Made by a program: the position numbers and the translations under genes. A stretch of 64,000 nucleotides of DNA, taken from UHGV virus genome UHGV-1342921. One strand, given 5' to 3'. This document shows positions 263-64,000 of the stretch, piece by piece (the stretch's first letter is position 1; each line of letters starts with the position of its first letter). This DNA comes from a virus. The notes below the pieces were generated by a model. The model worked only from the letters and a program-made list of their open reading frames with translations, had not been told where the DNA came from and made no database searches.

Positions 263-2751
263 CCTTCGATTAGACTATCATTGTCATAGTTCATTGTCGA
301 ATATCCGCTTACTTTGACTCGATCAATACTCTCGAAGATCTAACCAAACGAGCTGTCGAATTAGGTCTCCCTGGCATTGCGATTACTGAACACGAATGCC
401 TTGGTAACTCTATTGATATAGAAATCCTTCAAGAAAAAATTCGACAAGAGCATCCTAGTTTTAAGATTGTTCATGGCAACGAAATCTACCTTACAGACGA
501 TCGGTCTATGGGGCAAAAATACTATCATTTTATTTTGTTAGCTCTTGACGAGGTTGGTTTCCACATGATGTCCGAGCTGTCGTCTACCGCCTGGCTGAAC
601 GGGTATTTCGACCGAGGACTCATGCGCGTGCCGACTTTGAAGTCAGACGTCGAGGACGTAATCAAGCGTTACGGGCAAGGCCACATCTACGCAAGCCAGG
701 CTTGTCTTGGGTCGGAGTTAAGCACTTATGTCCTGAAAATGCACGACTGCCAGGAGAAGGGTGACAAAGAAGGTCGCAAGCACTGGCACGACGAGATCGT
801 CAAGTTTGTGAGCTGGTGCACGAACACGTTCGGCAAGGACAACTTCTGCTTTGAGATTCAGCCGTCAAGGTCGCACGACCAGTTGATTCTCAATAACATC
901 ATGCCGTCCATCGCAAAGGCGTTCAAACTGCCGATGTGCATTACGTGCGACGCCCATTACTTGACAAAGGAAGACGCCCCGATTCATAAGGCGTTCCTGA
1001 ACTCCAAGCAAGGCGATCGAGAGGTTGACGAGTTCTATTCTGCGACGTGGTTGCAGTCGGAGGATGAGATTCTTGAGCACCTTGAAGGCACTCCCGTCGA
1101 TTATGAGCAATGTTGCAAAGACAGCATGGCAATCTTTGATAGGGTGCAGGACTTCACCTTGAGGAAGCCACAAGAGGTGCCTGAAGCTCCCGTGCCGTTC
1201 AAGCCCAAGCGACATGTGGAATGTTCTAAATATCCCATCTTGTCGAAGCTGTATGAGTCTGACAGCGAGCAGGAAAGGTTCTGGGTAAACGAGTGCATCG
1301 GCCAACTGAAGAAACGAGGGCTGTATAACGACCAATACGTTTCAAGACTTGAAGAAGAAGCCGACGTTATGGATTATATCGGGCAGAAGCTCAACACCTG
1401 CATCTTCGCCTACTCACTGTTCATGCGCCACTATATCGACCTGATTTGGAACTGTGGCTCAACGGTTGGTGTCGGTCGTGGATCAGCTGGTGGCGGTTTA
1501 TCTCACTGGTTGCTTGGCATCACCGGCACAGACCCTATTATTAGTGGTAGCCATTTTTGGAGGTTTCTTAATAAAGAACGTGTCGAACTGCCTGATATTG
1601 ATATTGACGTGTGCCCATCCAAGCGAGAAGCTGTCTTCGAAGAGACACGCAAGGAGACTGGAGAGCTTGGTTGCGTGCACGTGTGCACCTATGGAACATT
1701 AACAACAAAGGCAACTATCAAGCTGGCTGGGCGAGGATACCGTTCCAAAGAGTACCCAAACGGCATCCCTCTTGAAGAGACTGAATACATCTCCTCTCTT
1801 GTGCCCTCCGAACGAGGATTTTTATGGACACTTAAGGACGTCATAAACGGCAATCCTGACAAGGGACGAAAGGCATCTGTGCAATTCAATGCAGAGATTG
1901 AGAAGTACCCTGGTCTCAAAGAGATTCTGTTCAAGATTGAAGGTCTTGTAGTTCAAGCAGGCATCCACGCAAGCGGTGTGATCTACCCGCCCAAGGAGGA
2001 CTATTACCGTTATGGACCTTTCATGAAGGCCAAGAACGGCACCATCATCACGCAGTATTCCCTGCACATGGCAGAAGCGGCAGGTGCCACCAAGATTGAC
2101 TGGCTCGTCACAGAAGTCCAAGAGGTCATCACCCAGTGCATCGAGGAGCTTCAGCAGGCTGGGTACATCGAGAAAGGCTTAACCCTGCGCGAGGCTTATG
2201 ACAAGTACGTCAGCCCTGATGCGATTCCTCTTGACGACCCTGACACTTGGGACGCTGTAGACCGAGCAGATGTCCTCAAGCTATTCCAGCTCGACTCTAT
2301 GATCGGTCGTCAAGGTGCAAGGCTCATCAAGCCTCGTTCAATCGAGGAGCTGACGGCTGTCAACGCATTGATTCGACTGATGGCAGACGACGGTGAGGAG
2401 CGCCCAATGGACAGGTACGTCCGTCACAAGGCGCATCCGGAAGAGTGGGAGAAGGAACTTGACGAGTACGGCCTGTCAGACGAGGAGAAGACTGTCCTAC
2501 ACAAGCATTTCGACTCAAGCTACGGCGTCTGCTACGCACAAGAGCAGATGATGATGGCATTGATGGACCCAGGCATTTGTGGGTTTGACTTCAAAGCCAG
2601 TAACCAGGCAAGAAAAATCGTGGCGAAGAAAAAGTTCGATCAGATTGAAAGCTTGCATAAGCAGATTGTTGAGAGTGCCGTTTCACCTGCTATGGCAAAG
2701 TATGTGTGGGACGTTGTCGTTAAACCTTCGTTAGGATACAGCTTCAACTAG
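249..2751 (+). CDS. dnaE: DNA polymerase III alpha subunit-like (DnaE family), exon 1. The first 22 codons (249-317) are in frame 0 and the rest (316-2751) is in frame +1.
   Basis: The N-terminal PHP domain reads MTTTNLRLDYHCHSSLSNIRLL then DSINTLEDLTKRAVELGLPGIAITEHE, which aligns to DnaE HSGYSLLNSAAAVEELV...LALTDDH. The 508..2751 ORF continues with the polymerase core. The RBS is GAGGGAGGGAAGG before the ATG at 249. The reading frame breaks at 312-318. Confidence 0.8.
312..318 (+). other. CTT TGA C heptamer. Either a prfB-like +1 ribosomal frameshift site or a 1-nt T-homopolymer indel inside dnaE.
   Basis: Frame 0 terminates at TGA 315-317 immediately after CTT. Reading GAC in the +1 frame gives ...IRLL-D-SINTLEDL, which matches the conserved PHP-domain alignment. 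Confidence 0.4.
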
Positions 2752-3018
2752 AGGAGCCTTTTACCGGTGACGGTAATAGCAAAGCTACTTAACTGCGGGA
2801 ACTTCTTTAGAGCCTATAACTACCAACCGTGCGTGGCGACATACATGGGGCAGAGGGTAACGCCCGAGATATGGTAACAAGGTTATAGGATTAGAAAATC
2901 CGCAACGCCACCTCTGGCTGTTAGACAGAGGAACGCCCAGAGACTACCACGTAGCCTTCTCTACAAGAGAAGATGGTATAGTCCAGACCGCAACACATAA
3001 GTGGCTGGGGAGACCCAG
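2750..3018 (+). ncRNA. Group I intron (ORF-less, about 270 nt) interrupting dnaE. Boundaries are approximate.
   Basis: The conserved core elements are present: P TTAACTGCGGGAAC (2789-2802), Q AAAATCCGCAACGCC (2895-2909), R CAGAGACTACCAC (2938-2950) and S GAAGATGGTATAGTCC (2968-2984). They are followed by P9 hairpins, the last being CTGGG-GAGA-CCCAG ending at G3018. Exon 1 ends in U at 2749. Exon 2 resumes the conserved DnaE block NVHGYSYSIIGYQCAWLATHYP, which matches Bacillus subtilis DnaE RSHAVAYSMIGCQLAYLKAHYP. Confidence 0.75.
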
Positions 3019-4346
3019 TGCGGTATTGCTCAAACGTTCACGGATATAGCTACTCAATCATCGGCTACCAGTGCGCATGGCTTGCAACACACTACCCGAA
3101 GGTGTTTTGGAACACTGCATGCCTTCGAGTGGACTCGGGCGTTGAAGACGATGCAACGACAAGTTATGACAAGATTTCAAAGGCGGTCGGCAACATTCTC
3201 AACGCAGGCATCAAAGTGTTGCCGATTGACATCAACAAGTCGGGGTACATGTTTGAGCCAGACGAGAAGACACAGTCGATTCTTTGCGGTCTTAAAGCGT
3301 TGATCGGCATCAATGGCGACACTGTTCAGCAAATCATCGAAAACAGGCCTTACAGTTCGTTCGATGACTTCCGAGAGAAGGTGCCGCTGAACAAGACGGC
3401 GATGATTTCACTCATCAAGGCTCACGCATTTGACTGCTTTGACGTCAGATACAACGTCATGGTTCAGTACATCACCGAGCAGAGCGAGCCCAAGTCCAAG
3501 CTGACGATGGCTAACCTGCAAGGTCTTATTGACAGGAGCATGATTCCGGCAGACTATCAGTTGCAGATCAGGACGTTCGTTTTCAACAAGTCCTTGCGTG
3601 CCAACTGCAAATTCAAGGAATGGTACACCCTTGAGGGCAGATACTATCGTTTCTATGAGAAGTTCTTCGACATAGACGAGCTTGAGAGCGTCGGCGGCAA
3701 GTTCTGCATCTCACAAAAGAAGTGGCAGAAGATGTATACAAAGATGATGGAGCCTGTGAAGAAGTACATCACCGACAACCAAAAGGCCCTGCTTGAACAG
3801 TTCAACCTCACGTTGTTCAACGAGCAATGGAACAAGTACGCATCGGGCACTCGCGGTTCGTGGGACATGAGTTCCCTGGGCTTCTATTCCGCCAAGCACG
3901 AGCTGGACGGCATAGAGTACGACAAGTACGGCCTGTCGAAGTTCTCAAGCCTGCCCGAGGAGCCTGTAGAAGCCGAGTCGCGTGGCAAGTTCAAGATTTA
4001 CAATCTCACGAGGATCTGCGGCACGGTTGTGGCGAAAGACGACACTCGTTCGACCTTCACTCTCCTCACCCCGGATTCAGGCTCCGTCGACGTCAAGCTT
4101 CCCAGGGAGATTTACGCCCACTACAACAGGAAGATCGTGCTGGAGAACTCTGGCTCGAAGATTTCCGAGGACGGGTGGTTCACAAGGGGCACGCTTCTCA
4201 TGGCATGCGGTTATCGGCAGGGAAACATGTTCAGGCTAAAGAGGTACAAGAACACGTCAAGCTTGCTGTTGTATAACATGGCGATAACCAAGAGTGGTAG
4301 GATAATCTGCACCGGAAGCCGCCTCGGTGACGAAGACGAGGTATAA
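3019..4346 (+). CDS. dnaE: DnaE exon 2 (C-terminal part, about 440 aa). The start is approximate (2982-3033).
   Basis: The translation is ...NVHGYSYSIIGYQCAWLATHYPKVFW...GIKVLPIDINKSGYMF...IGINGDTVQQIIENRPYSSFDDF, which is the conserved DnaE finger/HhH region. The frame is open from 2982 and there is no convincing independent RBS. Confidence 0.8.
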
Positions 4347-4355
4347 GTTACATTG

Positions 4356-4385
4356 TTTGACTACAGCTCCGCTTTTGTGTTATAA
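4356..4385 (+). promoter_or_regulatory. Sigma-A-like promoter: TTGACT, 18-nt spacer, TGT TATAAT (extended -10).
   Basis: TTGACT lies at 4356-4361 and TGnTATAAT at 4377-4385. The AAGGAG RBS and the gmk ATG at 4428 follow. Confidence 0.55.
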
Positions 4386-4409
4386 TAATATTTCACAAGA
4401 GCGGAGCTG
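4362..4409 (+). promoter_or_regulatory. Perfect 11-bp inverted repeat (ACAGCTCCGCT / AGCGGAGCTGT) bracketing the -10 box. Putative operator.
   Basis: The arms lie at 4362-4372 and 4399-4409 and are centred on the TATAAT at 4380-4385. Confidence 0.4.
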
Positions 4410-4427
4410 TTTGTATGTAAGGAGAAA

Positions 4428-5022
4428 AATGAGACAGAAGATTCTGGCAATCGTCGGTCCTTCATGTGCCGGTAAAGACACAATCAAAGACAGGCTTGCG
4501 CTTATCGACAGCCATACGTTCCACGTTCCACAGCGCGTGACTAGCAGGCCTCGCAGGCCAGGGGAGAGGGACTCGGCGTATAGGTTCGTCACAAAGCGAA
4601 CGTTCAAGACCGAGATAAAGTATGGCTGCCTTGCCGAGTACGGGTGGTTCCGTGGATGGGGGTACGGCACCAGGATTGACGACCTCACCAACGATGACGA
4701 AAAGATCAACGTGCTCACGATGGACTTGAACTCCCTAAAGATGCTCAAGAGGAACCTCGGTGTGGCAGACATCCGCTGTGTCTATCTTGACGCGCCCTTG
4801 TCTGTCCGTCTTAAAAGGTACAAGGACAGGGACGGTGGAATGTCATCGTTTGAGATGTACAGGCGTGCCGTCTCCGACAGCCTTATGTACCGCAACGCCA
4901 TCGACGAGATTCTAAAGCTCGGCATTCCGCACGCCTACATCCCCAACGACAAAGGGTTGTACGGCAGGACAGACGAGGTGCTGTCTTTTTGCAAAGATTG
5001 GTTGAACGGTCAAAGGTTTTAA
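4428..5022 (+). CDS. gmk: Guanylate kinase-like nucleoside monophosphate kinase
   Basis: The P-loop is IVGPSCAGKDT. The guanylate kinase signature reads TSRPRRPGERDSAYRFVTKRTF, compare TTRxPRxGExDGxDYxFV. The RBS AAGGAG sits 6 nt upstream of the ATG. Confidence 0.7.
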
Positions 5023-5023
5023 C

Positions 5024-5052
5024 TTGACATTATGACTCCATCTAGTATATAA
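5024..5052 (+). promoter_or_regulatory. Sigma-A-like promoter: TTGACA, 17 nt, TATAAT.
   Basis: TTGACA lies at 5024-5029 and TATAAT at 5047-5052. The RBS GGAGG precedes the nrdD ATG at 5088. Confidence 0.55.
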
Positions 5053-5087
5053 TACAAAAACCAGACACAAGATATTGGAGGTAGCCT

Positions 5088-6389
5088 ATGAAAGTTAAAA
5101 AAAGGAACGGCAATCTCGAAAAGTACGACTTAAAGAAGATCAGACACGCGATTGAGCGTGCGTTTGAGGACATCTACGGTCAAGAGACGTACACAAATGA
5201 CATGCAGGTCAACATCAGCGGATTAGCTTCAGCGACAGAAGTCCAAATTTGCAAGGTTGGGGTCGCAGATGTAGAGGATATCCAAGATGTGGAGGATATC
5301 CAAGACGCTGTTGAAGACGTGTTGATGCTCAATGGATATTATGAGGTGGCGAAGGAGTATATTCGATACAGGTATCTCCACGAGCTACGTCGAAATGAGC
5401 GAGAGCAAGAGAAGTTTTATGACAGCATCGGTGAAAAGCTCAAAGCTACCAACGTTCAGAACCAGAATGCGAATGTCGATGAGAAGTCCTTCGGTGGTAG
5501 AATGGGTGAGGCCTGTTCTGAACTAACCCGTGATTACGCTTTAAAAAACTGTTTATCCGAAATGGCAAGGAACAACCATCTTAATAACGAGATTTACGAA
5601 CACGACCTTGATCATTACCCCACAGGAGACCACAACTGCCTGTCTATTCCATTTGACAAGCTTTTGGCTAATGGCTTCAACACAAGACAAACCGATGTAA
5701 GACCTGCAAATTCCGTCAATACGGCGTTTCAATTGGTTGCCGTCATTTTTCAGCTACAGAGTCTTATGCAGTTTGGTGGGGTAAGTGCGACGCATCTAGA
5801 TTGGACAATGGTTCCATATGTACGAAAGTCCTTCTTAAAGCATTTTAAAGACGGAATGCTTTGGTGGTGTAAGAGCTGTGACAACAGCGATAAATATGCT
5901 AAATTCCTCCGTGAAGTAGAAGACGGCTTGTGGCCCGACACACTCTTTATTGAAGACGAGAGATACAAAGTCCATGATATGGCTTATCAATACGCGGTCG
6001 AAATGACCAAGAAAGAGACTTATCAAGCGGTAGAAGGCATGTACCACAACCTAAATACACTACAAAGTCGAAGCGGGAACCAGCTTCCCTTTACATCAAC
6101 CAATTTCGGCACATGCACGCTTCCTGAAGGTCGTCTTGTCATAAAAGCAATGCTAGAAACTTCGATTCGCGGTCTTGGCAAGCTTCATAAAACCAGTATT
6201 TTTCCCTGCACTATTTTCCAGTGTATGAAGGGTGTCAATCGAGCTCCTGGAGATCCAAATTACGACCTGTTCCAGCTTGCTTTAAAATCAACCTCTCAAA
6301 GGCTTTACCCCAACTATGCTAACGTAGATTGGTCTGGCAACGCTGGCTACGATAGAAACGATCCAAAGACCTACTTCAGCACCATGGGT
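5088..6389 (+). CDS. nrdD: Anaerobic ribonucleoside-triphosphate reductase NrdD, exon 1
   Basis: An ATP-cone reads KVKKRNGNLEKYDLKKIRHAIERAF. NrdD core motifs IYEHDLDHYP...HNC...GGVSATHLDWTMVPYV follow. The exon ends ...STMG (GGT 6387-6389), immediately before the conserved MGCR motif that resumes at 7484. Confidence 0.85.
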
Positions 6390-7483
6390 AAGCGTAAACT
6401 ATAGCTCATGTAAAACCTCCTTAACCTCGCCAGAGGGTGTGGGTTCTTAAACTCGCTAACGGTTAGGGCTCTTATGAGTTGAGACCGTGCTAAACACTCT
6501 AAAAATGTTGTTCTTTTCTGACTCTCTTGAACAAAAAAGGGGTACATACAAGAGAAAGCAGTTAGAAAGGACCAACATGTATATCTACAAAGTAACAAAC
6601 AGTTTGAACGGTAAATTTTATATTGGGCAAACGGTTCGAACTCCAGAATCCAGATGGGAACGTCATAAAAATGATGCCCTAGGAGATCGTCACCTTGATA
6701 CACATTTTGCGAGAGCTATTAGAAAATATGGCCCTGAAAATTTTACCATTGAAACAATTGACACTGCATCCTCTCAAGAAGAACTGACGAAGAAAGAACA
6801 TGATTGGATAGTTAAGACTCGGGCGGTAGAGAAAGGTTATAACGAAACTTCTGCTATCGAAAAATGTGGTGGTAACACCTACGAGTCAAAAACCAAAGAA
6901 GAACTTGCTTGTATTGGTGAGAAAATTAGAAAAACTAAACTTGGTGGCAACAATCCTCACTCAACAAAGGTAAAATGTAAAGACACTACCACGGGCGAAG
7001 AATTTCATTTTAATTCTCAAGTAGAAATGCAAAAGTTCTTTGGCGCTCCTAATCACCTGTTTATTTCACGACGTTGTCTTGGACAAGTAAAAAGTTTATA
7101 CAAAAAACGCTGGCTAATCTCTTACGAAGAAGGAGAGATTATTGCGAAGAACCATATTGGAAAAGGTTCAGAAAGAGCAACCGGCGTTTACGTAAAAGAT
7201 TTACAAACAGGGGAAAGTAAGTCTTTTCCCAGCTATTCCGATGCAGAGCGATATTTTGGACAGAAGGAAAGAGCTTTTAGTAGCAAAGCCTACAAAAGAG
7301 GCAATTCTTTTGTTTATAAAAGTAGATATGAAATTACAAAAATTTTAGAGTGAAAGTGTATCGACTATCCCTGATGAATGTAAGGGAGTAGGGCTAGAGA
7401 TAGGCACTAGCTCGAAACGGGAGGCTACCGTCTTATGAAGGTAGAAGATATAGTCAGTGCAGATGGTGACATCTGATAACACG
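6390..7483 (+). ncRNA. Group I intron in nrdD carrying a GIY-YIG homing endonuclease ORF
   Basis: Exon 1 ends in U (6389). R contains CGACTA at about 7365. S is GAAGATATAGTC at 7446-7457. The P9 hairpin CAGATG-GTGA-CATCTG lies at 7460-7475, and omega-G is at 7483. Splicing restores the conserved NrdD motif TMG|CRTANG...DGRGN. Confidence 0.8.
6577..7353 (+). CDS. Intron-encoded GIY-YIG homing endonuclease
   Basis: The N-terminus is MYIYKVTNSLNGKFYIGQT...RWERHK (GIY-x10-YIG, Arg, His). The RBS GAAAGGA sits 5 nt upstream. The ORF lies wholly within the intron. Confidence 0.8.
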   Translation: MYIYKVTNSLNGKFYIGQTVRTPESRWERHKNDALGDRHLDTHFARAIRKYGPENFTIETIDTASSQEELTKKEHDWIVKTRAVEKGYNETSAIEKCGGNTYESKTKEELACIGEKIRKTKLGGNNPHSTKVKCKDTTTGEEFHFNSQVEMQKFFGAPNHLFISRRCLGQVKSLYKKRWLISYEEGEIIAKNHIGKGSERATGVYVKDLQTGESKSFPSYSDAERYFGQKERAFSSKAYKRGNSFVYKSRYEITKILE

Positions 7484-8422
7484 TGTAGGACCGCCAATGG
7501 ATACGACATCAATGGCATGGCCCAGACAAAAGACGGACGAGGGAACATCTGTCCTGTCACTATAATTATGCCGACTCTTGCTATGGAAGCCGACCGAGAT
7601 GTAGAGAAGTTCATGGAACTTCTTGACAAAAAGATTCACGAAGCCAAAGACATGCTTTTGGAACGTTTTGAGTACATCTGCTCACAGTCTCCTGAATCGG
7701 GCAAGTTCATGTACGAGAACGGCACTATGGAGGGATATATTCCGGAAGAGGGTATCCGTAGCGCTCTCAAGCATGGTACGTTGGCGCTTGGCCAGTTAGG
7801 ACTAGCGGAAACGCTTCAACTGCTTATCGGAACAGACCAGACAACAGACAAAGGAATGGAATTGGCCAAGCGTATCGAGTCTTTGTTCCGCAAGCGCTGT
7901 GATGAGTTTAAGCACAAGTACAAGCTTAATTTTGGAGTTTATTACACACCAGCAGAGAATCTATGCTTTAAAGCTCTTAAAAAGTTTAGAGCTAAATATG
8001 GCGTTATTCCTAACGTGTCAGACAAAGATTTCTTTACTAACTCTATTCATTGTCCTGTATGGAGCGATTTAACAGTTATGGAAAAGATTGACATTGAGTC
8101 TCAACTCACAGGATATTCCAACGCGGGCTGCATCGTTTACGCCGAATTGCCATCAACCACTAAGAACAACCTTGAAGCACTTGAGACTATTGTAAATTAT
8201 GCAATGGATAAAGATATCCCTTATTTTGCCATCAACGTGCCGAACGACACTTGCCTTGACTGCGGATATTGCGACGAGTTCAACGACCATTGCCCAATGT
8301 GCGGAAGCACTCATATTCAACAGCTTCGTAGAGTGACAGGCTACTTAACTGGGAACTATACCACCGCGTTCAATCTCGGCAAGCAAGACGAGGTTCACCA
8401 TAGAGCCAAGAATGCAAGATAA
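7484..8422 (+). CDS. nrdD: NrdD exon 2, carrying the glycyl-radical and zinc-ribbon C-terminus
   Basis: The translation is CRTANGYDINGMAQTKDGRGNICPVTII..., compare E. coli MGCRSFL...DGRNNLGVISLNL. The C-terminus has CLDCGYCDEFNDHCPMCGS and the glycyl-radical motif RRVTGYL. Confidence 0.85.
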   Translation, partial: CRTANGYDINGMAQTKDGRGNICPVTIIMPTLAMEADRDVEKFMELLDKKIHEAKDMLLERFEYICSQSPESGKFMYENGTMEGYIPEEGIRSALKHGTLALGQLGLAETLQLLIGTDQTTDKGMELAKRIESLFRKRCDEFKHKYKLNFGVYYTPAENLCFKALKKFRAKYGVIPNVSDKDFFTNSIHCPVWSDLTVMEKIDIESQLTGYSNAGCIVYAELPSTTKNNLEALETIVNYAMDKDIPYFAINVPNDTCLDCGYCDEFNDHCPMCGSTHIQQLRRVTGYLTGNYTTAFNLGKQDEVHHRAKNAR

Positions 8423-8459
8423 TAAACCTTGATTCTGCTTATAGAATTAAATTTTACCA

Positions 8460-8489
8460 TTGACGGCAGGTCCATATATGTGCTATAAT
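8460..8489 (+). promoter_or_regulatory. Sigma-A-like promoter: TTGACG, 18 nt, TGC TATAAT (extended -10).
   Basis: TTGACG lies at 8460-8465 and TATAAT at 8484-8489. It sits upstream of an RBS GAAAGGAG and the ATG at 8518. Confidence 0.5.
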
Positions 8490-8517
8490 ATACTTATCAG
8501 TTGAAAGGAGCACATAC

Positions 8518-8871
8518 ATGGACTCTGTCTTTCTTGTTTGGTATGACAACGGCGAAGATTACGAAGACAATTACACTTCCGTGGAGAAGGTGTTCCACAC
8601 CAGAAAGAACGCAGAGAGGTTCCTTGAGGAAGACCTAGACCTTGAGCGAGTTGACAGCAAGTTCGGTACAACTTGGATCCCCAAGAAAGCCCCCTGTCCC
8701 TTCGGTCTCACCGACGGAGAGAACTGCGCCCGTCAGTTCTGCCCGATGTTCTCCCCTTCCGAGAACGACGACGTTCTGACTGGCGTCCGAGAGTGCAAGC
8801 ACGAGGATATCTTCTGGGAGAACGAGTATCTTCGCCATTTCTACACAATAGAGCAGAGGGAAGTATATTAA
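8518..8871 (+). CDS. Hypothetical protein (117 aa)
   Basis: The ORF has a strong RBS and own promoter. It is acidic, with no recognisable motif. Confidence 0.5.
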   Translation: MDSVFLVWYDNGEDYEDNYTSVEKVFHTRKNAERFLEEDLDLERVDSKFGTTWIPKKAPCPFGLTDGENCARQFCPMFSPSENDDVLTGVRECKHEDIFWENEYLRHFYTIEQREVY

Positions 8872-8884
8872 GGAGGTAAGAAGC

Positions 8885-9409
8885 TTGAGGTATGCCGACA
8901 TCCACAAAATGAACATCAGCGACGGTCCTGGCATAGGCGTGTCGTTGTACGTTCAGGGGTGCGCGTTGCATTGCCCAGGTTGCTTTAACGAGGGAACCTG
9001 GGACTTCGACGGTGGGAAAGAGTACACGAACGACACGATGGACACAATCCTCGATCTGCTCAAGCCCGAGTGGATGACAAGGCTGTCCATCCTTGGCGGG
9101 GAACCACTATGTCCAGCGAACTACAGGGAGCTTATCAAGCTCACGTATCTGGCGCATGAGGAGAACAAAGACAAGCCAGACTTTAAGGTGTGGATGTGGA
9201 CCGGCAGGACTTACGAGAACCTTATGGCCGAGATAAACTCCGAGTCAGACTGCAAGCACCAGCACCCTTTGGAGCTCGTCCTGAAGGGCGTCGACTACCT
9301 GGTGGACGGCCCGTTCATCCAGGACAAGAAAGACCTGACGCTCAAGTGGCGCGGAAGCTCGAACCAAAGGATCATCGCCTTGAACGGCAACGAAGAGATT
9401 GGACAATAG
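8885..9409 (+). CDS. nrdG: Anaerobic ribonucleotide reductase activating protein (radical SAM)
   Basis: The radical-SAM motif reads GPGIGVSLYVQGCALHCPGCFN (CxxxCxxC). There is a TTG start with RBS AAGGAGG. The gene sits directly downstream of nrdD. Confidence 0.85.
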   Translation: MRYADIHKMNISDGPGIGVSLYVQGCALHCPGCFNEGTWDFDGGKEYTNDTMDTILDLLKPEWMTRLSILGGEPLCPANYRELIKLTYLAHEENKDKPDFKVWMWTGRTYENLMAEINSESDCKHQHPLELVLKGVDYLVDGPFIQDKKDLTLKWRGSSNQRIIALNGNEEIGQ

Positions 9410-9413
9410 CAAG

Positions 9414-9815
9414 ATGGAAATGAACACAGGCCTTACACAGTATGAATTTGCAAAGCGGCGATTTGAGAGCGGTGCCGTCGATGAGTTCACCGAGACCAAG
9501 ACGATTGCCGAGTTGACGAACATCAGCGCGTGGTTCTCTACGGAGAAGTACTTCCAATATTTCATGCTGTTGTGCCGAGAAGCCTACGACTTCACCGTCA
9601 TCAACATCAAGGGCACCAACTACCACAAGGCAATGACCGAGGTTCAGGAAGTGCTTGAGTCCCGTGGCAAGATCGTGTTCATTGAATATTGTCATGACAG
9701 CGGGGACTACGAGATTTGGATCAAGACCAACGAGCAGATGAAAATGGTTACCGGGTCCGACTATGTTATGTTTAAGTTGTTCCCATGCAACGACTTCGTG
9801 ATAGAGGTGGATTAA
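9414..9815 (+). CDS. Hypothetical protein. The start is ambiguous (TTG 9399 or ATG 9414).
   Basis: This is the tracked ORF 9399..9815 and it is tightly packed within the operon. Confidence 0.45.
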   Translation: MEMNTGLTQYEFAKRRFESGAVDEFTETKTIAELTNISAWFSTEKYFQYFMLLCREAYDFTVINIKGTNYHKAMTEVQEVLESRGKIVFIEYCHDSGDYEIWIKTNEQMKMVTGSDYVMFKLFPCNDFVIEVD

Positions 9816-9816
9816 A

Positions 9817-10074
9817 GTGAAGTTATATGTCAACATCAACGGACTGACAAAGATCACGGCTTTTGACGACAACAACAACATCGTCTTTGAGAAGAACTGC
9901 ACCTACCCTGAAATTCTCAACATCCTAGACGCCGTGTCTCAAAAGTACCAGGCAGAGTCTTTCGACAAGATCTACATCACCGGGGCAAGTAAGCTCACCG
10001 AGCGACTCATGAACTCAATGACCCCAGTGTTTACCAAGGCAATGTACTGCATTGAAGGAGGAAGGAAGCGCTAA
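9817..10074 (+). CDS. Hypothetical protein (85 aa)
   Basis: This is a tracked ORF starting with GTG. Its stop overlaps the next start (ATGA). Confidence 0.4.
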   Translation: MKLYVNINGLTKITAFDDNNNIVFEKNCTYPEILNILDAVSQKYQAESFDKIYITGASKLTERLMNSMTPVFTKAMYCIEGGRKR

Positions 10075-10355
10075 TGATTCAGTATCTTCTTAAAACCACC
10101 GAGGAAATCATGGTCGACACCGAGGTCGACGTCGATTCCCTTCAGGACTTTCTGAAGCGCGACGCAGAGGAGCAGAACTACGTCATCAAGACGTTCTCTT
10201 ATGAGAAGAAGGTTCGCAAGATGAAGGGCGAGGAAGACGAGGAGTATTACAAGTGCAAGGTGGTCAAGCTGTTCAACAGTGAGAAGTACCCCGACCTACC
10301 TCTTCGCAAGGTTGTTTACACGGGCTTCAACGACGGCAGGAGCGATGAGATTTGA
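10074..10355 (+). CDS. Hypothetical acidic protein (93 aa)
   Basis: This is a tracked ORF. An RBS GGAGGAAGG lies upstream. Confidence 0.45.
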   Translation: MIQYLLKTTEEIMVDTEVDVDSLQDFLKRDAEEQNYVIKTFSYEKKVRKMKGEEDEEYYKCKVVKLFNSEKYPDLPLRKVVYTGFNDGRSDEI

Positions 10356-10621
10356 TAGACATCACCAAAGAGAAGATGACTCAAGAGGAAATAAGCTCCA
10401 ACCTTCGACTTGACGGATTCTCTTGGTGCTACTTTTCAACGGCGAAGGGTCGGTTCGGCTTGTATCTTGTGCCGACCCTTCGCCAGGACGGCTTTCCCGT
10501 CAATGTGACAGTCATGGACAATGACGGTAGGGTCGTCATTTACGAGCATCATTTTGACGTGCCGAAAAAGGAATGGAGCAATTTCTTCAACAATATCATT
10601 GACCAGTTGAACGACATTTAG
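10352..10621 (+). CDS. Hypothetical protein (89 aa)
   Basis: This is a tracked ORF with an overlapping start (ATGA). Confidence 0.4.
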   Translation: MIDITKEKMTQEEISSNLRLDGFSWCYFSTAKGRFGLYLVPTLRQDGFPVNVTVMDNDGRVVIYEHHFDVPKKEWSNFFNNIIDQLNDI

Positions 10622-10628
10622 GAGGAAC

Positions 10629-11084
10629 ATGGAAAAGGACATGCTATCGCACAGTGAGTTTGAGACCATTCAGATCAAGTACTTCCCCGGTGCGCCCCAT
10701 CTAGAGAAGATTGACAAGGGCGATTGGATCGACCTATACACCAACGAGGATGCAGTGCTGTTTGAGGGCGAGTCAAAGATTGTCCCTCTAGGTGTAGCCA
10801 TGAAGCTTCCCGATGGCTATGAAGCCATTGTAGCCCCTCGTAGCAGTACTTTCAAGAGGTGGGGCGTTATTATGACGAACAGCCTTGGGATTATCGACAA
10901 CAAGTATTGCGGAAACGATGACCAGTGGGGCATGCCGGTCTACGCGACTCGCAACGTAACCATCCCCAAGGGAACCCGGCTTTGCCAGTTCCGCATCCAG
11001 AAGAACCAGCCTGACATTCTGTTCAAGGAAGTTGACAGCCTTAATGATTCAAACCGTGGTGGATGGGGCAGTTCGGGCGAGTAG
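10629..11084 (+). CDS. dut: dUTP diphosphatase (trimeric dUTPase)
   Basis: Motifs AIVAPRSSTFKRWGV, GIIDNKYCG and the C-terminal RGGWGSSG are present. The RBS is GGAGGAAC. Confidence 0.85.
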   Translation: MEKDMLSHSEFETIQIKYFPGAPHLEKIDKGDWIDLYTNEDAVLFEGESKIVPLGVAMKLPDGYEAIVAPRSSTFKRWGVIMTNSLGIIDNKYCGNDDQWGMPVYATRNVTIPKGTRLCQFRIQKNQPDILFKEVDSLNDSNRGGWGSSGE

Positions 11085-60714: not shown

Positions 60715-61254
60715 TTACTTAAAAACACACTTTGAAAAGTCAAAGGCGTAAGTGGAAACCTTGTCGTCAGAAGCTCCTGTAACCTTAACCTCAACAACGG
60801 GGTTAGTGGAGTCAACGGCGAAGAGCATGTCTCCATCGTCGCTGGTAAGAGCAGTTCCGGCAACGGACTTGTACGCATACTTCGTGCCACCAGTGAGAGT
60901 GACGGGGAAGTAGTAGCCAGTGGCCTCACCCTCGGGAAGAACCGTCTCGCTCTTACCGGTGAGCTTGTTCCACTTGGCAAGATAATCAGTTGTGTCACTG
61001 ACAGGATAGAGCATACCGAAGAAGTCAATATTCTTACGGGTAATCTCTGTCTTCAGGTTACGGCCATACTTGGCTTCCTTACCAGGAACAGCGCTCGTAA
61101 TCGCAGGATCGGCAGGGTTGCAAGTGTCGTCCTTCACGAGGCTATCCTTTGGAAGAACGTTCTCGTCACCCATGATCTGGATAGCGCAGAACACCTTCTT
61201 GGTACGGTCGAACTTGGTGTAATCCGGGAAAGCATCGAGCGTGAAAGTAAATGA
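60715..61254 (-). CDS. Major-tail-protein-like exon/gene (SFTFTLDAF...VFK). The ATG at 61255-61257 may be the intron's 3' terminal AUG.
   Basis: This is the tracked ORF 60715..61257. There is no SD upstream of its ATG, and the intron P9 hairpins abut the ATG directly. Confidence 0.55.
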   Translation of the reverse strand, partial: SFTFTLDAFPDYTKFDRTKKVFCAIQIMGDENVLPKDSLVKDDTCNPADPAITSAVPGKEAKYGRNLKTEITRKNIDFFGMLYPVSDTTDYLAKWNKLTGKSETVLPEGEATGYYFPVTLTGGTKYAYKSVAGTALTSDDGDMLFAVDSTNPVVEVKVTGASDDKVSTYAFDFSKCVFK

Positions 61255-62149
61255 CATTATTTTCGTATAGGTTCGTTACACCTATACCTCTTAAATAAGA
61301 GCTCATGTTTTCGCATGAGATAAGACTATATCTTCACCCTGTTACCAGGGGTCCCCCATTTCGAGCGCACTTGCGCTCTACTCCAATAAATGGATAGTCG
61401 TTGAGCCTTGACCTCTCCAAGTCTTTCCTTTTAGGATATATCCTATGTTAGATCGAGAACATCCAAACAAAGAAGCAATTTCTTGTAATTTTTTACCCTG
61501 CGAACGGAGAGTAAAAATTTCTTTAATATCATCTTCTTTTAACTTTGAATTTCCTATTTGCTCACCTCGGCAAAAATGTCTTAAACCATGTTCAGAAGCA
61601 TGTTCCATGTTTTGCTTTGGTGTCACCCATTCAAGGTTCTTTAAAGTGTTGTTTGTTTTGTCTCCGTCTATATGATTAACTTCATACAAACTAAAATCTC
61701 TAACAGGATAAAAACAAGCTAATACAAGCCGATGTACCAAAAACTTTTTTGTCTTTTTAGTCTTGGTTACTAGCACCTGCTCCATATAGCCTGTTTTTCT
61801 ATTTAAGAAAGGCTTTAAAAATTTTTGAGAATATTCAGAATAAATTTTTCCATCATCGGAAATGTGGTAAAAATCTTTTATTTCCGGGAAAATCGAACTG
61901 ATTTGTTTTTTCAAGAAAGGCCTTCTTCCTATAGTAAGTTTTCACTATATATAGGATACCCTTTCCCATAAAACTTATTCTCTAAAACGAGAGGTCCTTG
62001 GTTGCTGATTGCCCAATCCTTGTAATTTTCAAACCATCACGCTCGACGTTGCCGTCCACGTTGTGGTTTACAAGGCTATAAGGGTGTTCCAGCAGTTAAG
62101 GGGCTAATTTTTCAACGTATTACTACGCAGCCAAGCAATATTCTACTTT
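61255..62149 (-). ncRNA. Group I intron B (minus strand) carrying an HNH endonuclease ORF. Boundaries are proposed.
   Basis: Read on the minus strand, the proposed P1 pairs exon CCAAGU (62155-62150) with IGS GCUUGG (62136-62131). Then come P AACTGCTGGAACACCC (62101-62082), Q TGGGCAATCAGCAACCAAGG (62015-61996), R TCAACGACTATCC (about 61404-61392) and S GAAGATATAGTC (61335-61324). Three 3' hairpins follow (CTCATG-CGAAAA-CATGAG, CTCTT-ATTT-AAGAG and TATAGG-TGTAACGAA-CCTATA), ending ...AAUAAUG (omega-G at 61255). Confidence 0.7.
61378..61914 (-). CDS. Intron-encoded HNH homing endonuclease (NUMOD4/HNH_3 plus a C-terminal HTH)
   Basis: The HNH motif reads VNHIDGDKTNNTLKNLEWVTPKQNMEHA and the HTH is KKLQEIASLFGCSRSNIGYILKGKTW. 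There is a TTG start with an RBS GGAAGAAGG. The C-terminal ...GSTTIHLLE is encoded across the R element. Confidence 0.75.
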   Translation of the reverse strand: MKKQISSIFPEIKDFYHISDDGKIYSEYSQKFLKPFLNRKTGYMEQVLVTKTKKTKKFLVHRLVLACFYPVRDFSLYEVNHIDGDKTNNTLKNLEWVTPKQNMEHASEHGLRHFCRGEQIGNSKLKEDDIKEIFTLRSQGKKLQEIASLFGCSRSNIGYILKGKTWRGQGSTTIHLLE

Positions 62150-62847
62150 ACTTGGATCTCCGGAGTTAGCCATTGTGAAGGTGAAGTTGGACTGAATCTT
62201 GGCGTCAGGAATGACGAAGACGGCAGGCATATCCTTCTTGGTGTACTGATCGCGGAACAGAGTGGAGGCTTCGATGTAGAAGTCACCAGCGAAGTTCTCG
62301 GCGTCAATAGTTATCTGCCTGGCTCCGCTTGAACGCTGGCAGTAGCAATCAACGCGGAGTGTGCAACCGATGTACTGCTCGGCATCGACGAAAGTCAGCT
62401 CAAGATAAGAGTTGGCAGAAGAAGGAATGGTGAAAACATGTCCATCATCGGTATCACCAAGCACGCACTCACCGATATAATCCTTTGGATTCTGTGTTGT
62501 TGAGGTGTCATCCTTGCGAACCTCGCCGTTCTCGACAAGCTTGATGCCGTCGGTGGCAAGAGAAAGGAAGTAGACACCAGCACCGGCGTTGTCGAGAACC
62601 GTGCCGAAAATCTGGCCCTTGTTCTCGCTAAAGTAGATGTCATGGGCGTCCTGGGCTGTGTCGTAATCAAGGTGGACACAGGCAGTTCCTTCCTTCCTAC
62701 CCTTGACGATAGGAAGATCGAACTGGACGGGCTGGTAAATGTAAGTGCCAGTGGCGTTGCTGGCGTCGGTCACGTTGTTAAGACCAGCACCAGTAAGCAT
62801 GGCGAGAGAAACAGGCGAAATCAATGCGTCTTCAACAGTGAAGGTCA
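62123..62847 (-). CDS. Major-tail-protein-like exon/gene (MTFTVEDALISP...CLAA). The tracked N-terminal extension is intron sequence. The real 3' end may be the splice donor at 62150.
   Basis: The ATG at 62847-62845 is immediately preceded by intron A hairpins. Tandem TAG TAA stops lie at 62125-62120. A P1-like pairing suggests splicing after ...SGDPS (62150), in frame to SFTFTLDAF. Confidence 0.55.
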
Positions 62848-64000
62848 TTGTGCGTTCCCTATGTGTTGGAGCCAGGTCGCTACCCTGACCCTCCTGGTCA
62901 CTGCCGTGTTGCCAGGACTCCACCTTTATGTATACGTGGAGAGCAGACTATATCTTCACCCCGCTCAATGCAGGGGCCTCCCACTTCGAACGCGCTTGCG
63001 TCCTACTCCGACAGACGGATAGTCGTTGAACCTTCTCGATTACTTTTGAAATCTCTTAAAATTGTTCTCGGAATGAGTAACTTTTTGCAAATTGGCAAGT
63101 CGATTATCCGACGGATCGTTATTGATATGGTCAATAACGTAGCCGTCGTAATCATAATCTCCAGTGAAAGTGCTGTAAACAAGCCTATGAATGTAATACC
63201 TTGGGCCGTTCATCCCAAGTTTCACTCTACTATATCTTAAGTTATCATCCGTTCGAATCAATTTTCCAGATTTGGTATTTACAACTCGACCCATGTTGGA
63301 TACCTCGTAAATGGGCGCATCTTTAACCGGTAACCATTGCTCGCCAGGGAGGTTTTCAATGTGATATCGGTGACTTCTGTGAATGACCTTCGCATTCTTC
63401 AGATACTCGTCTGTGTTTTGCTTGAAAGTCGCCCACTCTAGATTCTCAACTCTGTTGTCAAGTTTATCGCCGTTCTTGTGATGGACGACCGGAAGGTTGT
63501 CAGGGTTTGGAAGAAAATATTCAGCGACAAGACGATGCGCATAAACCATCTTGCCCTTTTTTCCGGTAAGTTCGTTCATGAGTGCCAGACAATATGTCTG
63601 GTAGCCAACATTGTCAATCTTACCTGAAACCCAACGACCCTTATCTTCCTCGTACCGTCCTCCGTGACGGCCAGGCTTTTTTAAGCTCTTGACTCTGCCG
63701 TCGTTGTAAATCAAATAATCTGGATCTTCTTTTAGAGGTTTGTATTCGAGCTTGGATGCTGATTGTCCAGTCATAAATATCGCTCTCCTTTTTTTATACT
63801 GGTTTATATGTCCTAGGGACATTATACCCCAATAGATTTAAAAAGTCAAGAAATTTTATGCTTCTGGATTTTCCAGCAGTTCAGGAGGTATTTCTTATAA
63901 GCATTGGTTTGCTTATTGGAGGGTTCACGCGAATGCGAGTGTAAACCTTATAGGGAAGGTTTACCCCAGCCCTCCCATGCTATCAAGCGTGGGTTGCCCT
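62845..64000 (-). ncRNA. Group I intron A (minus strand) carrying an HNH endonuclease ORF. The 5' end is at or beyond the window edge.
   Basis: Read on the minus strand, the elements are P AACTGCTGGAAAATCC (63886-63867), Q TGGACAATCAGCATCCAAG (63769-63751, inside the HNH ORF), R GGTTCAACGACTATC (63032-63018) and S GAAGATATAGTC (62957-62946). The 3' hairpins are CTCCAC-GTATACATAAAG-GTGGAG and TCCTGG...CCAGGA, ending ...CACAAUG. The intron core is closely related to intron B. Confidence 0.65.
63040..63822 (-). CDS. Intron-encoded HNH homing endonuclease (two HNH_3-like halves)
   Basis: The two halves read VHHKNGDKLDNRVENLEWATFKQN and IDHINNDPSDNRLANLQKVTHSEN. The RBS is AAAAAGGAGAG. The ORF spans the Q element. 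Confidence 0.75.
   Translation of the reverse strand: MSLGHINQYKKRRAIFMTGQSASKLEYKPLKEDPDYLIYNDGRVKSLKKPGRHGGRYEEDKGRWVSGKIDNVGYQTYCLALMNELTGKKGKMVYAHRLVAEYFLPNPDNLPVVHHKNGDKLDNRVENLEWATFKQNTDEYLKNAKVIHRSHRYHIENLPGEQWLPVKDAPIYEVSNMGRVVNTKSGKLIRTDDNLRYSRVKLGMNGPRYYIHRLVYSTFTGDYDYDGYVIDHINNDPSDNRLANLQKVTHSENNFKRFQK

Follow-up and report, generated by a model that had tools for sequence, protein, structure and literature searches.

Positions 6390-7483 of the window, the 64,000-nucleotide stretch of UHGV virus genome UHGV-1342921 analyzed here, are very probably a mobile group I intron that interrupts nrdD in an uncultivated gut phage of ~140 kb. Anatomy, homology, covariation, patchy distribution and endonuclease turnover, all read from DNA sequence, point to an RNA that would splice itself out between the exons and to an encoded enzyme that would cleave DNA and support homing.

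The interrupted nrdD gene and its insert

Joining the exons at 6389/7484 yields a seamless 746-aa NrdD ORF that reads ...YFSTMG/CRTANG... (slash at the junction; ...ACCAUGGGU joined to UGUAGGACC), which bears out an earlier annotation made from the letters of the window alone (hereafter, the sequence-only reading) that had divided nrdD into the same two segments and noted the restored TMG/CR motif. The Pfam NRDD profile breaks at the same point: exon 1 matches its positions 2-262 and exon 2 its positions 264-560 (E = 6e-76). Neither exon contains a stop or frameshift. Exon 1 also encodes the ATP-cone (Pfam, E = 5e-18), while exon 2 encodes the Pfam Gly_radical domain, the glycyl-radical motif RVTGY and a C-terminal Cys cluster (CxxC...CxxC). 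With a full NRDD domain, the finger-loop Cys, the radical motif, the Cys cluster and an adjacent activase gene, nrdG (8885-9409), the joined product has the features of a class III (anaerobic) ribonucleotide reductase (RNR). In an alignment with T4 NrdD, the MGCR motif of the window aligns with T4 Cys290, which we take to be the thiyl-radical residue on the strength of structural and mutagenesis work on the T4 enzyme; a literature search found no open-access support for this role. The exon 1 frame continues for 15 nt into the insert, ending at TAG 6402-6404, and the inserted ORF is not in the exon frame, so we rejected an intein.

We set the splice sites by the seamless NrdD product, the P1/P10 pairing and 31 complete same-site homologues (Table 1). 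The guide is contiguous (CUAUA-GCUCAU, 6399-6409) and complementary to both exons, and the combination of a 5' exon-terminal U paired with G in P1 and an intron-terminal G occurs in 32 of 32 complete family members. Downstream, covariation supports a conserved core that runs from P3 to P9 and includes a P3/P7 pseudoknot. Two hairpins, P7.1 and P7.2, separate P7 from the 3' strand of P3, a T4-like architecture that we provisionally call IA2, after the subgroup of the T4 introns. Landmarks picked out by the sequence-only reading were mostly where it had put them: CGACTA, its R element, is at 7362-7367 and the P9 hairpin is as described, while its S element exists but was misplaced by two positions (GAAGATATAGTC is at 7444-7455, not 7446-7457). 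The intron ends 8 nt past P9.

In the mechanism that we propose, the guide would form P1 with the final six exon 1 bases and P10 with the opening five of exon 2, and the core would fold into P3-P9, P7.1/P7.2 included, along with the two additional hairpins that lie between P3 and P4. Guanosine-initiated transesterification would then join the Gly434 and Cys435 codons to give full-length NrdD, the catalytic Cys codon being the first of exon 2. Translation of the GIY-YIG protein would probably be held back by a predicted hairpin that sequesters its ribosome-binding site (RBS). In a co-infection the endonuclease would cut an intron-less nrdD near the site, and the intron would spread by homing as the cut allele is repaired from the copy that carries it.

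Table 1 Features of the interrupted nrdD locus (window coordinates; paired strands separated by a slash)
Feature	Position	Strand	Description
nrdD exon 1	5088..6389	+	434 codons: ATP-cone and N-terminal half of NrdD; ends ACC ATG GGU
Group I intron	6390..7483	+	1094 nt; T4-type, P7.1/P7.2 present; last base G7483
P1	6384-6389 / 6404-6409	+	exon AUGGGU : guide GCUCAU; U6389•G6404 at 5' splice site
P10	6399-6403 / 7484-7488	+	CUAUA : exon 2 UGUAG
P3, 5' strand	6416-6421	+	intron 5' core (6416..6504)
P3.1	6425-6428 / 6433-6436	+	extra hairpin
P3.2	6441-6444 / 6451-6454	+	extra hairpin
P4	6459-6463 / 6484-6488	+	
P5	6468-6471 / 6476-6479	+	
P6	6490-6491 / 7355-7356	+	5' strand / 3' strand
P6a	6495-6504 / 7343-7352	+	5' strand / 3' strand; loop houses GIY-YIG ORF
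Predicted endonuclease-leader hairpin	6505..6578	+	pairs across Shine-Dalgarno GAAAGGA and first two AUG bases
GIY-YIG homing-endonuclease ORF	6577..7353	+	258 aa; in P6a loop; PF01541 E = 2e-8
P7	7363-7368 / 7450-7455	+	intron 3' core (7343..7483)
P7.1	7369-7372 / 7383-7386	+	identical to T4
P7.2	7391-7397 / 7407-7413	+	3 covarying pairs
P3, 3' strand	7419-7424	+	
P8	7425-7429 / 7440-7444	+	
P9	7460-7465 / 7470-7475	+	CAGATG-GTGA-CATCTG at 7460-7475, then AUAACACG
nrdD exon 2	7484..8422	+	312 codons plus stop; first codon Cys435 (T4 Cys290 equivalent)

The endonuclease gene and the intron family

The GIY-YIG gene that the sequence-only reading had placed in the insert is confirmed by its Pfam match (34.7 bits against a cut-off of 22.6), and the 3' strand of P6a is formed in part by its final codons together with the UGA stop (7351-7353). 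Its PHROG matches are homing-endonuclease families, and among solved structures it matched only the catalytic domain of I-TevI (1MK0/1LN0, E ~ 2e-5). In that alignment the ORF agrees with I-TevI at four catalytic residues, Arg, His, Glu and Asn, the corresponding elements in the ORF being YIY...YIG, R(W)ERH, the E in KKEHDW and the N in GYN. As for a zinc finger or DNA-binding domain of the I-TevI type, the protein gave only a NUMOD1 match in the C-terminal region that, at 17.5 bits, falls below its cut-off of 22.8, accompanied by weak PHROG matches over residues 195-237. The predicted leader hairpin has a folding energy of -25.1 kcal/mol (z = -3.19; 2 of 200 shuffles fold as well) and is similar to those reported to sequester the RBS of I-TevI, II and III (PMC2988022). 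A search for related loci with the endonuclease returned only five distant matches to its N-terminal GIY-YIG part.

At least 35 contigs of uncultivated phages in IMG/VR carry an intron of this family at the same codon boundary, and the empty site was found on >120 contigs with related nrdD genes, a sample chosen by its junction sequence. Some nrdD genes with only ~25% protein identity have intron cores that match this one at 65-73% identity. In complete copies the P6a loop holds a GIY-YIG gene of the window type, a short GIY-YIG gene, an HNH_3 gene or no ORF; ORFs of the window type in this loop are 39-66% identical to that of the window. ORF-less versions of 238-286 nt sit at the same nrdD site, and the RNA is therefore conserved independently of any encoded protein. 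We read the patchwork of occupied and empty sites, along with the variety of loop contents, as signs that the intron moves within the family, and the comparison marks the Gly-Cys boundary as a hotspot in its own right, in phages other than T4's set.

An unlikely alternative is that, in an intron that still splices, the GIY-YIG gene has become a decaying passenger with no further role in mobility, leaving the window lineage with vertical inheritance only. In the family, the GIY-YIG ORF is fragmented in seven members and lacking in five, and the C-terminal DNA-binding region of the window protein matches NUMOD1 only below threshold. In addition, neither a 32-mer nor a 21-mer across the window's own exon-exon junction, which could have revealed an empty site or spliced RNA, had a match among viral and metagenome contigs; these contigs thus gave no intron-less copy of precisely this nrdD lineage, and recent homing in it is unsupported. 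The window gene itself, however, does not look decayed: it is full length (258 aa, compared with 252-253 aa for the other long ORFs of the family), retains the aligned catalytic residues, has upstream both a Shine-Dalgarno sequence and a hairpin that looks regulatory, and encodes a protein whose exact sequence is present on 10 public contigs. An active homing endonuclease is accordingly the reading we prefer, as a prediction.

Helix conservation and predicted splicing

Across 27 distinct homologous introns from the same nrdD site, 97.5% of 1948 pair cells hold standard pairs and 37 of the 74 pairs show double (compensatory) changes; the same structure slid along the alignment is only 37-47% paired, and none of 500 shuffles did as well. 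Compensatory changes occur in each of P3, P3.1, P3.2, P5, P6 and P6a, and P1 and P10 are 100% and 83.6% paired, respectively. The homologues were collected by their P7/P7.1 motif and both helices are by construction invariant in the sample, so these two contribute no covariation evidence. The group I assignment made by the sequence-only reading is upheld by the P1/P10 pairing, by the covariation and by the 35 IMG/VR contigs with a homologous insert at the same boundary, a recurrence far beyond chance.

The Rfam group I model was less receptive. At the RF00028 gathering score (50 bits) nothing matched in the whole window or in five other family loci, four of which have ORF-less introns. In E-value mode, Intron_gpI aligned to the 3' half of the window intron only (7267-7476; 23.3 bits, E = 0.002, below the gathering score), and even at E <= 1 two short members, L025, whose intron has no ORF, and L040, gave no match at their loci. 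Because the T4 nrdD intron, run as a positive control, scored 105.3 bits, we put the failure down to the model: it was probably the 33-nt P3.1/P3.2 insertion, together with the ORF in P6a, that kept the score low. The result nonetheless fails the formal test. At its curated threshold, RF00028 misses the intron family of the Gly-Cys site.

We consider it very improbable that nrdD is permanently split, with an insert that no longer splices and either two polypeptides making up NrdD or a gene reduced to a pseudogene. There is a precedent in Aeromonas phage Aeh1, whose nrdA is split by mobE, divided RNR genes that function without splicing are documented (PMC3653736), and the sub-threshold Rfam score counts on the same side. 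Yet all core helices are intact in the window copy and are kept by compensatory change in the family, and the conserved ORF-less versions make no sense without an RNA function. The reading frames tell against separate polypeptides and a pseudogene as well, both exons being open throughout and exon 2 having no start codon or RBS at the junction; its only ORF start, GTG 7457, is inside the 3' core of the intron between P7 and P9. The preferred reading remains a spliced nrdD.

Interruption of nrdD recurs in other phages. The closest cultured relatives of the window nrdD are those of the Thomasclavelia phages TR-TP1 and TR-TP2 (PQ571309/PQ571310; 68% amino acid identity); these genes too are broken within the Met-Gly-Cys motif, the insert having a similar sub-threshold Rfam group I match (27.9 bits), and GenBank lists their parts as separate CDSs with no intron feature. 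Split nrdD genes of this kind are given as separate CDSs in metagenome assemblies too. Their insert is a different intron of 877 nt (5248-6124 of locus L002) that lies 4 nt upstream (AU/GGGU as against AUGGGU/), carries an HNH endonuclease, a different guide and a long tail past P9, and went undetected by the profile of the Gly-Cys-site family. In the gut 'Jug' jumbo phages (Sci Adv 2026, PMC12880540), 95 of 104 genomes are reported to have an nrdD broken up by group I introns and homing endonucleases, in one case into four fragments, and RNA reads support splicing at some junctions, an observation that we counted in favour of splicing; the available part of that paper describes these introns without site-level or structural detail. 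Two contigs of the Gly-Cys-site family, L040 and L046, are 280-345 kb in length.

Relationship to the T4 introns

The nrdD (sunY) intron of T4 is an experimentally proven group I intron. It shares with the window intron its host gene, P7.1/P7.2, a GNRA-capped P9 and a GIY-YIG endonuclease. The ribozymes are 68.6% identical over 204 aligned core nucleotides and share an uninterrupted run of 32 nt (7362-7393) that spans P7, P7.1 and the start of P7.2, in agreement with the T4-like 3' end pointed out in the sequence-only reading; the guide GCUCAU is also common to both, within the shared stretch AGCUCAUGUAAAA. By these alignments, the window ribozyme is of the same lineage as the T4 nrdD intron. 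The two differ in that P3.1/P3.2, between P3 and J3/4, are present only in the window intron, and a long 3' extension past P9 only in that of T4.

Mapping the insertion sites separates the two introns. The T4 intron lies inside codon Tyr180 (after CDS nt 538), which aligns with His320 of the window and places it between 6045 and 6046, whereas the window intron lies between Gly434 and Cys435, the counterparts of T4 Gly289 and Cys290, equivalent to a position after T4 CDS nt 867. The T4 site is thus upstream by 329 nt of T4 coding sequence or 344 nt of that of the window (~110 codons). The I-TevII ORF follows P9/P9.1, beginning 40 nt past P9, in contrast to the P6a position of the window ORF. 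We rejected orthology of the window endonuclease with I-TevII because BLASTP gave no similarity between the proteins (E = 0.96). The layout therefore differs from that of T4 in site, ORF loop and endonuclease, contrary to the sequence-only reading, which had equated the two and supposed an ancient hotspot shared with T4. Descent of the window intron as the direct orthologue of the T4 intron with I-TevII, at one ancient site, can be dismissed on the site mapping for all that the cores are homologous, the guide is shared and both ORFs encode GIY-YIG proteins of 258 aa, since the loops and the proteins differ too and the extra nrdD introns found in relatives never use the T4 site (the nearest, of another intron type, is 7 nt away, in the Leu322 codon).

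The ORF of the T4 td intron is also looped out of P6a, with its 3' end overlapping core sequence. That intron interrupts the thymidylate synthase gene and not nrdD, and the window ORF has an I-TevI-like catalytic domain and, like I-TevI, an RBS-sequestering hairpin (PMC2988022; predicted in the window).

We tentatively suggest, as a possibility short of an even chance, that the T4 nrdD intron and the Gly-Cys-site family are linked by a guide-constrained jump between two sites in nrdD. Their 5' exon hexamers are one transition apart (AUGAGU in T4, AUGGGU in the window), and spliced T4 nrdD contains exactly two ATGRGT hexamers, precisely at the two intron sites; at other sites, introns of this ribozyme subfamily carry other guides that fit the exons flanking them. 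Reverse splicing could have brought about the jump, as could an illegitimate DNA insertion that was retained only where the guide already present was able to pair.

By itself, the window intron is textbook biology, a further phage RNR intron with a homing endonuclease. The family offers more: one ribozyme lineage at one codon boundary, beside the catalytic Cys codon, in dozens of uncultivated phages. Its members cover every stage of the endonuclease life cycle, from the empty intron through three endonuclease lineages in one loop to decayed copies, with a competing intron 4 nt away in sister phages and T4 sunY as a relative that has the same guide at a second site. These properties make it a good natural system for the gain, swap and loss of group I introns and of their endonucleases, and for how introns arrive at new sites.

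The nrdD intron and its family

The nrdD gene is split at 6389|7484 as the sequence-only reading described, and the ORF map, the sequence, Pfam and the joined product agree on this. The exons match positions 2–262 and 264–560 of the Pfam NRDD profile, so that no part of NrdD is absent or doubled, and joining U6389 to U7484 yields a 746-aa ORF (…YFSTMG|CRTANGYDINGMAQTKDGRGNICP…) with the glycyl-radical motif RVTGY and the C-terminal cysteine cluster. The proposed GIY-YIG ORF lies inside the insert and matches the Pfam domain; a split nrdD with an intron-borne endonuclease is therefore confirmed. The sole slip in the finding concerned the GAAGATATAGTC motif, which is present but lies at 7444–7455, not at 7446–7457.

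Features of the split nrdD gene and of other interrupted or apparently interrupted genes (window coordinates unless a locus is named)
Feature	Coordinates	Strand	Length	Content	Basis
nrdD exon 1	5088–6389			ATP-cone and N-terminal half of NrdD	ORF map, Pfam
Group I intron	6390–7483		1094 nt		
GIY-YIG ORF	6577–7353		258 aa	GIY-YIG domain	Pfam
nrdD exon 2	7484–8422 (stop)			C-terminal half of NrdD	ORF map, Pfam
nrdG	8885–9409			downstream of nrdD	
Insert in dnaE-like gene	2735–3007	+	~265 nt	between ORFs 508..2751 and 3018..4346	
HNH_3+NUMOD4 ORF	61378..61914	-		region ~61302–62159	
HNH_3+NUMOD4 ORF	63040..63822	-		region ~62924–63900	
ORF	60715..61257			no Pfam match	
ORF	62123..62923			no Pfam match	
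TR-TP2 intron (same in TR-TP1)	L002 5248–6124		877 nt	HNH ORF 5394–5900	

At its curated threshold Rfam gave no match in the whole window, and with permissive settings the 3′ part of the insert scored 23.3 bits (E = 0.002). Since the same tool scored the proven T4 nrdD intron, our positive control, at 105 bits, the miss required an explanation, and we built the case on comparative data instead. A 32-nt stretch (7362–7393) is identical between the insert and the T4 nrdD intron, and ~110 nt can be aligned at 74%. Searching IMG/VR with a 31-nt motif from this stretch retrieved 42 contigs, in 35 of which the motif lies within an nrdD broken exactly at the window's Gly434|Cys435 boundary. All 32 complete introns that we extracted, the window's included, start after …ATGGGT and end in a terminal G before TG[TC]. 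The ORF-less members are only 238–286 nt long, which shows that the RNA is conserved in its own right.

Twenty-seven distinct introns were aligned, with the variable P6a loop swapped for GAAA, and pair counts were scored on a structure proposed from the window's own sequence. Standard pairs filled 97.5% of 1948 cells, against 37–47% in a control with 3′ partners slid by 1–3 columns; both sides changed in 37 of 74 pairs, and none of 500 shuffles equalled the observed values. P3, P5, P6, P6a, P7.2, P8 and P9 covary; the lack of variation in P7 and P7.1 simply reflects the motif by which the sequences were selected. P1 (AUGGGU/GCUCAU), which has its U•G at the splice site, shows complete pairing in the family, and the intron bases of P10 (CUAUA/UGUAG) directly precede the P1 guide. 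Two extra covarying hairpins, P3.1 and P3.2 (6425–6454), separate P3 from the conserved UAA-P4; the T4 nrdD intron lacks them, and with the ORF in P6a they plausibly account for the weak Rfam score. T4 homology, the exact-site family and covariation together uphold the original call: the insert is a genuine group I intron, and we infer that it self-splices.

The exon 1 frame stops at a UAG (6402–6404) inside the guide region, so that exon 1 ribosomes would halt before the core. The 70-nt endonuclease leader is predicted to fold into a hairpin (−25.1 kcal/mol, z = −3.2) whose base pairs take in the Shine-Dalgarno sequence together with the A and U of the start codon; this resembles the way in which translation of I-TevI, II and III is controlled (PMC2988022). 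Ten public contigs, the longest 142 kb, encode the window endonuclease unchanged, and NCBI DAL50548.1 (Caudoviricetes sp.), in its cluster of at least 90% identity, had already been automatically named "intron associated endonuclease".

Comparison with the T4 nrdD intron

The sequence-only reading had also seen the same layout as T4 nrdD with I-TevII and a possible insertion hotspot common to both, but site, ORF position and endonuclease all differ. The sole T4 junction obeying the U…G rule (GAGU|UAACG…CAUUG|AUGAAG) falls inside codon Tyr180, aligned to window His320 (6045|6046), whereas the counterpart of the window site in T4 is Gly289|Cys290, 329 nt downstream in the T4 coding sequence. Homing sites typically abut catalytic codons; we take Cys290 to be the thiyl-radical cysteine of T4 NrdD, and if that is right the window intron abuts the catalytic cysteine codon. 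The I-TevII ORF of T4 begins only after the complete core, P9 included, whereas the window ORF sits in the P6a loop and supplies the P6a 3′ strand with its final codons and stop. BLASTP of the window endonuclease against I-TevII gave no similarity; the protein matches instead the catalytic domain of I-TevI (1MK0/1LN0; E ~ 2e-5), the T4 td intron endonuclease, whose catalytic Arg, His, Glu and Asn are conserved. The ribozymes are homologous (68.6% identity over 204 aligned positions). The earlier interpretation is thus partly supported, in that intron and endonuclease are real and the T4-like layout and common hotspot are not.

Occupancy, turnover and mosaicism

Occupancy of the Gly|Cys site is patchy. 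A junction-spanning pattern matched more than 120 empty IMG/VR contigs, a lower bound, and all 80 empty-site loci examined carry a related nrdD (42–81% identity) uninterrupted through the site; a search for an unoccupied allele that has the junction sequence of the window itself found none. Of the 32 complete introns, 5 carry no ORF in the P6a loop, 14 an intact window-type GIY-YIG ORF (150–258 aa), 7 fragmented copies of that type, 2 a distinct 174-aa GIY-YIG + NUMOD protein, 3 an HNH_3 + I-HmuI-type NUMOD protein (one a remnant) and 1 an unidentified ORF. Window-type ORFs are 39–66% identical to the window's. In two contigs (L011 and L025) NrdD is only ~25% identical to the window's and closer to T4's, and yet their intron cores are 65–73% identical to the window's, near or within the 69–79% found in hosts with 62–77% identical NrdD, which suggests horizontal spread.

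The closest cultured relatives, Thomasclavelia phages TR-TP1 and TR-TP2 (NrdD 68% identical), have another intron, one that encodes an HNH enzyme, at AU|GGGU, 4 nt before the window site; GenBank annotates two NrdD CDSs and an HNH endonuclease, and no intron feature. This second intron makes the Met-Gly-Cys motif a genuine hotspot, though not one common with T4.

Further nrdD inserts occur in IMG/VR relatives (L009, L027, L028, L032, L040, L043, L045 and L049) at His172|Asp173, Gly230|Gly231, in the Leu322 codon, after Gly330, in the Leu333 codon and at Pro590|Ala591. Up to three, possibly more, were mapped per gene, L043 and L027 probably have a micro-exon, and more breaks lie near aa 537/538 in contigs with an empty Gly|Cys site. 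In an nrdD exon of L049 (~1395–1400, motif-forward orientation) the CAG of relatives is replaced by an in-frame TAG (NTL*SRSG versus NTLQSRSG); recoding of TAG to Gln, a pseudogene or an error in sequencing could each explain this. In Vibrio phage vB_VorS-PVo5 one 1022-aa ORF (L003 1501–4569) encodes the whole NrdD and carries no annotation beyond hypothetical protein; an intein-like insert of ~300 aa interrupts it at another conserved cysteine (…MTN|C…N|CCLVDL).

Syntenic loci L172–L177 carry P0021, another member of the window's NrdG cluster (at least 90% identity), with a completely different nrdD body. Measured directly for L176 (3109–5054 against window ~5387–8438), the bodies have no DNA similarity and the proteins only ~31% identity (~70% in the first 131 aa), but the flanks match window 2938–5386 and 8439–11038 at 86–90% DNA identity; the window nrdD module, intron included, thus looks like a mosaic replacement. 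In these close relatives (L171–L177) the other nrdD type is extremely polymorphic in intron content, being uninterrupted in L176 (739 aa) and in 4–5 pieces in L171–L174, separated by HNH_3 genes, a ~300-nt ORF-less insert and a 248-aa ORF without a Pfam match. A LAGLIDADG gene splits the dUTPase/DCD gene of L172, and the L176 and L177 copies are intact.

Elsewhere in the window, an insert without an ORF seems to interrupt a DNA polymerase III alpha (dnaE-like) gene; the insert gives a sub-threshold Rfam group I match (27.3 bits, E = 5e-5), and the syntenic L176 has a LAGLIDADG ORF at that position. Towards the window's edge, HNH_3+NUMOD4 ORFs alternate with ORFs lacking a Pfam match, and sub-threshold Rfam group I matches of 26–30 bits lie at 61302–61519, 61902–62159 and 62924–63142. 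The region 61302–63900 probably holds two more putative endonuclease-bearing introns in one gene, possibly structural, with its first exon beyond the edge.

A guide common to two nrdD sites

A AGCUCAUGUAAAA stretch, with the guide sequence within it, is common to the T4 and window introns, and the 5′ exon ends, AUGAGU in T4 and AUGGGU in the family, pair with the same GCUCAU. Spliced T4 nrdD contains exactly two ATGRGT hexamers, at nt 533–538 (its own intron site) and nt 862–867 (the Gly|Cys site). Where the same ribozyme subfamily sits at other sites the guides differ, each matched to its own exon (exon/guide GACGGU/GCCGUC in the second intron of L025, GAGGAU/GUCCUC in L037, CCCU/GGGG in L017), so the common guide does not extend to the clade as a whole. 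The pattern fits an ectopic, guide-constrained move between the two nrdD sites, whether by reverse splicing or by selection for splicing ability after illegitimate insertion, a reading that we consider rather unlikely.

Cultured phages with a split nrdD have been described before (PMC3653736), and a study of gut Jug jumbo phages reports nrdD fragmented in 95 of 104 genomes, with RNA reads supporting splicing at some junctions (PMC12880540). From a limited literature check, the Gly|Cys-site family, the P3-J3/4 insertion and the guide common with T4 sunY may be undescribed.

The 31-nt P7-P7.1-P7.2 core motif also occurs in IMG/VR introns outside nrdD (L017/L019/L023, L030, L035 and L037), whose guide sequences match other exons. 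On this evidence the ribozyme module is distributed over several phage genes.
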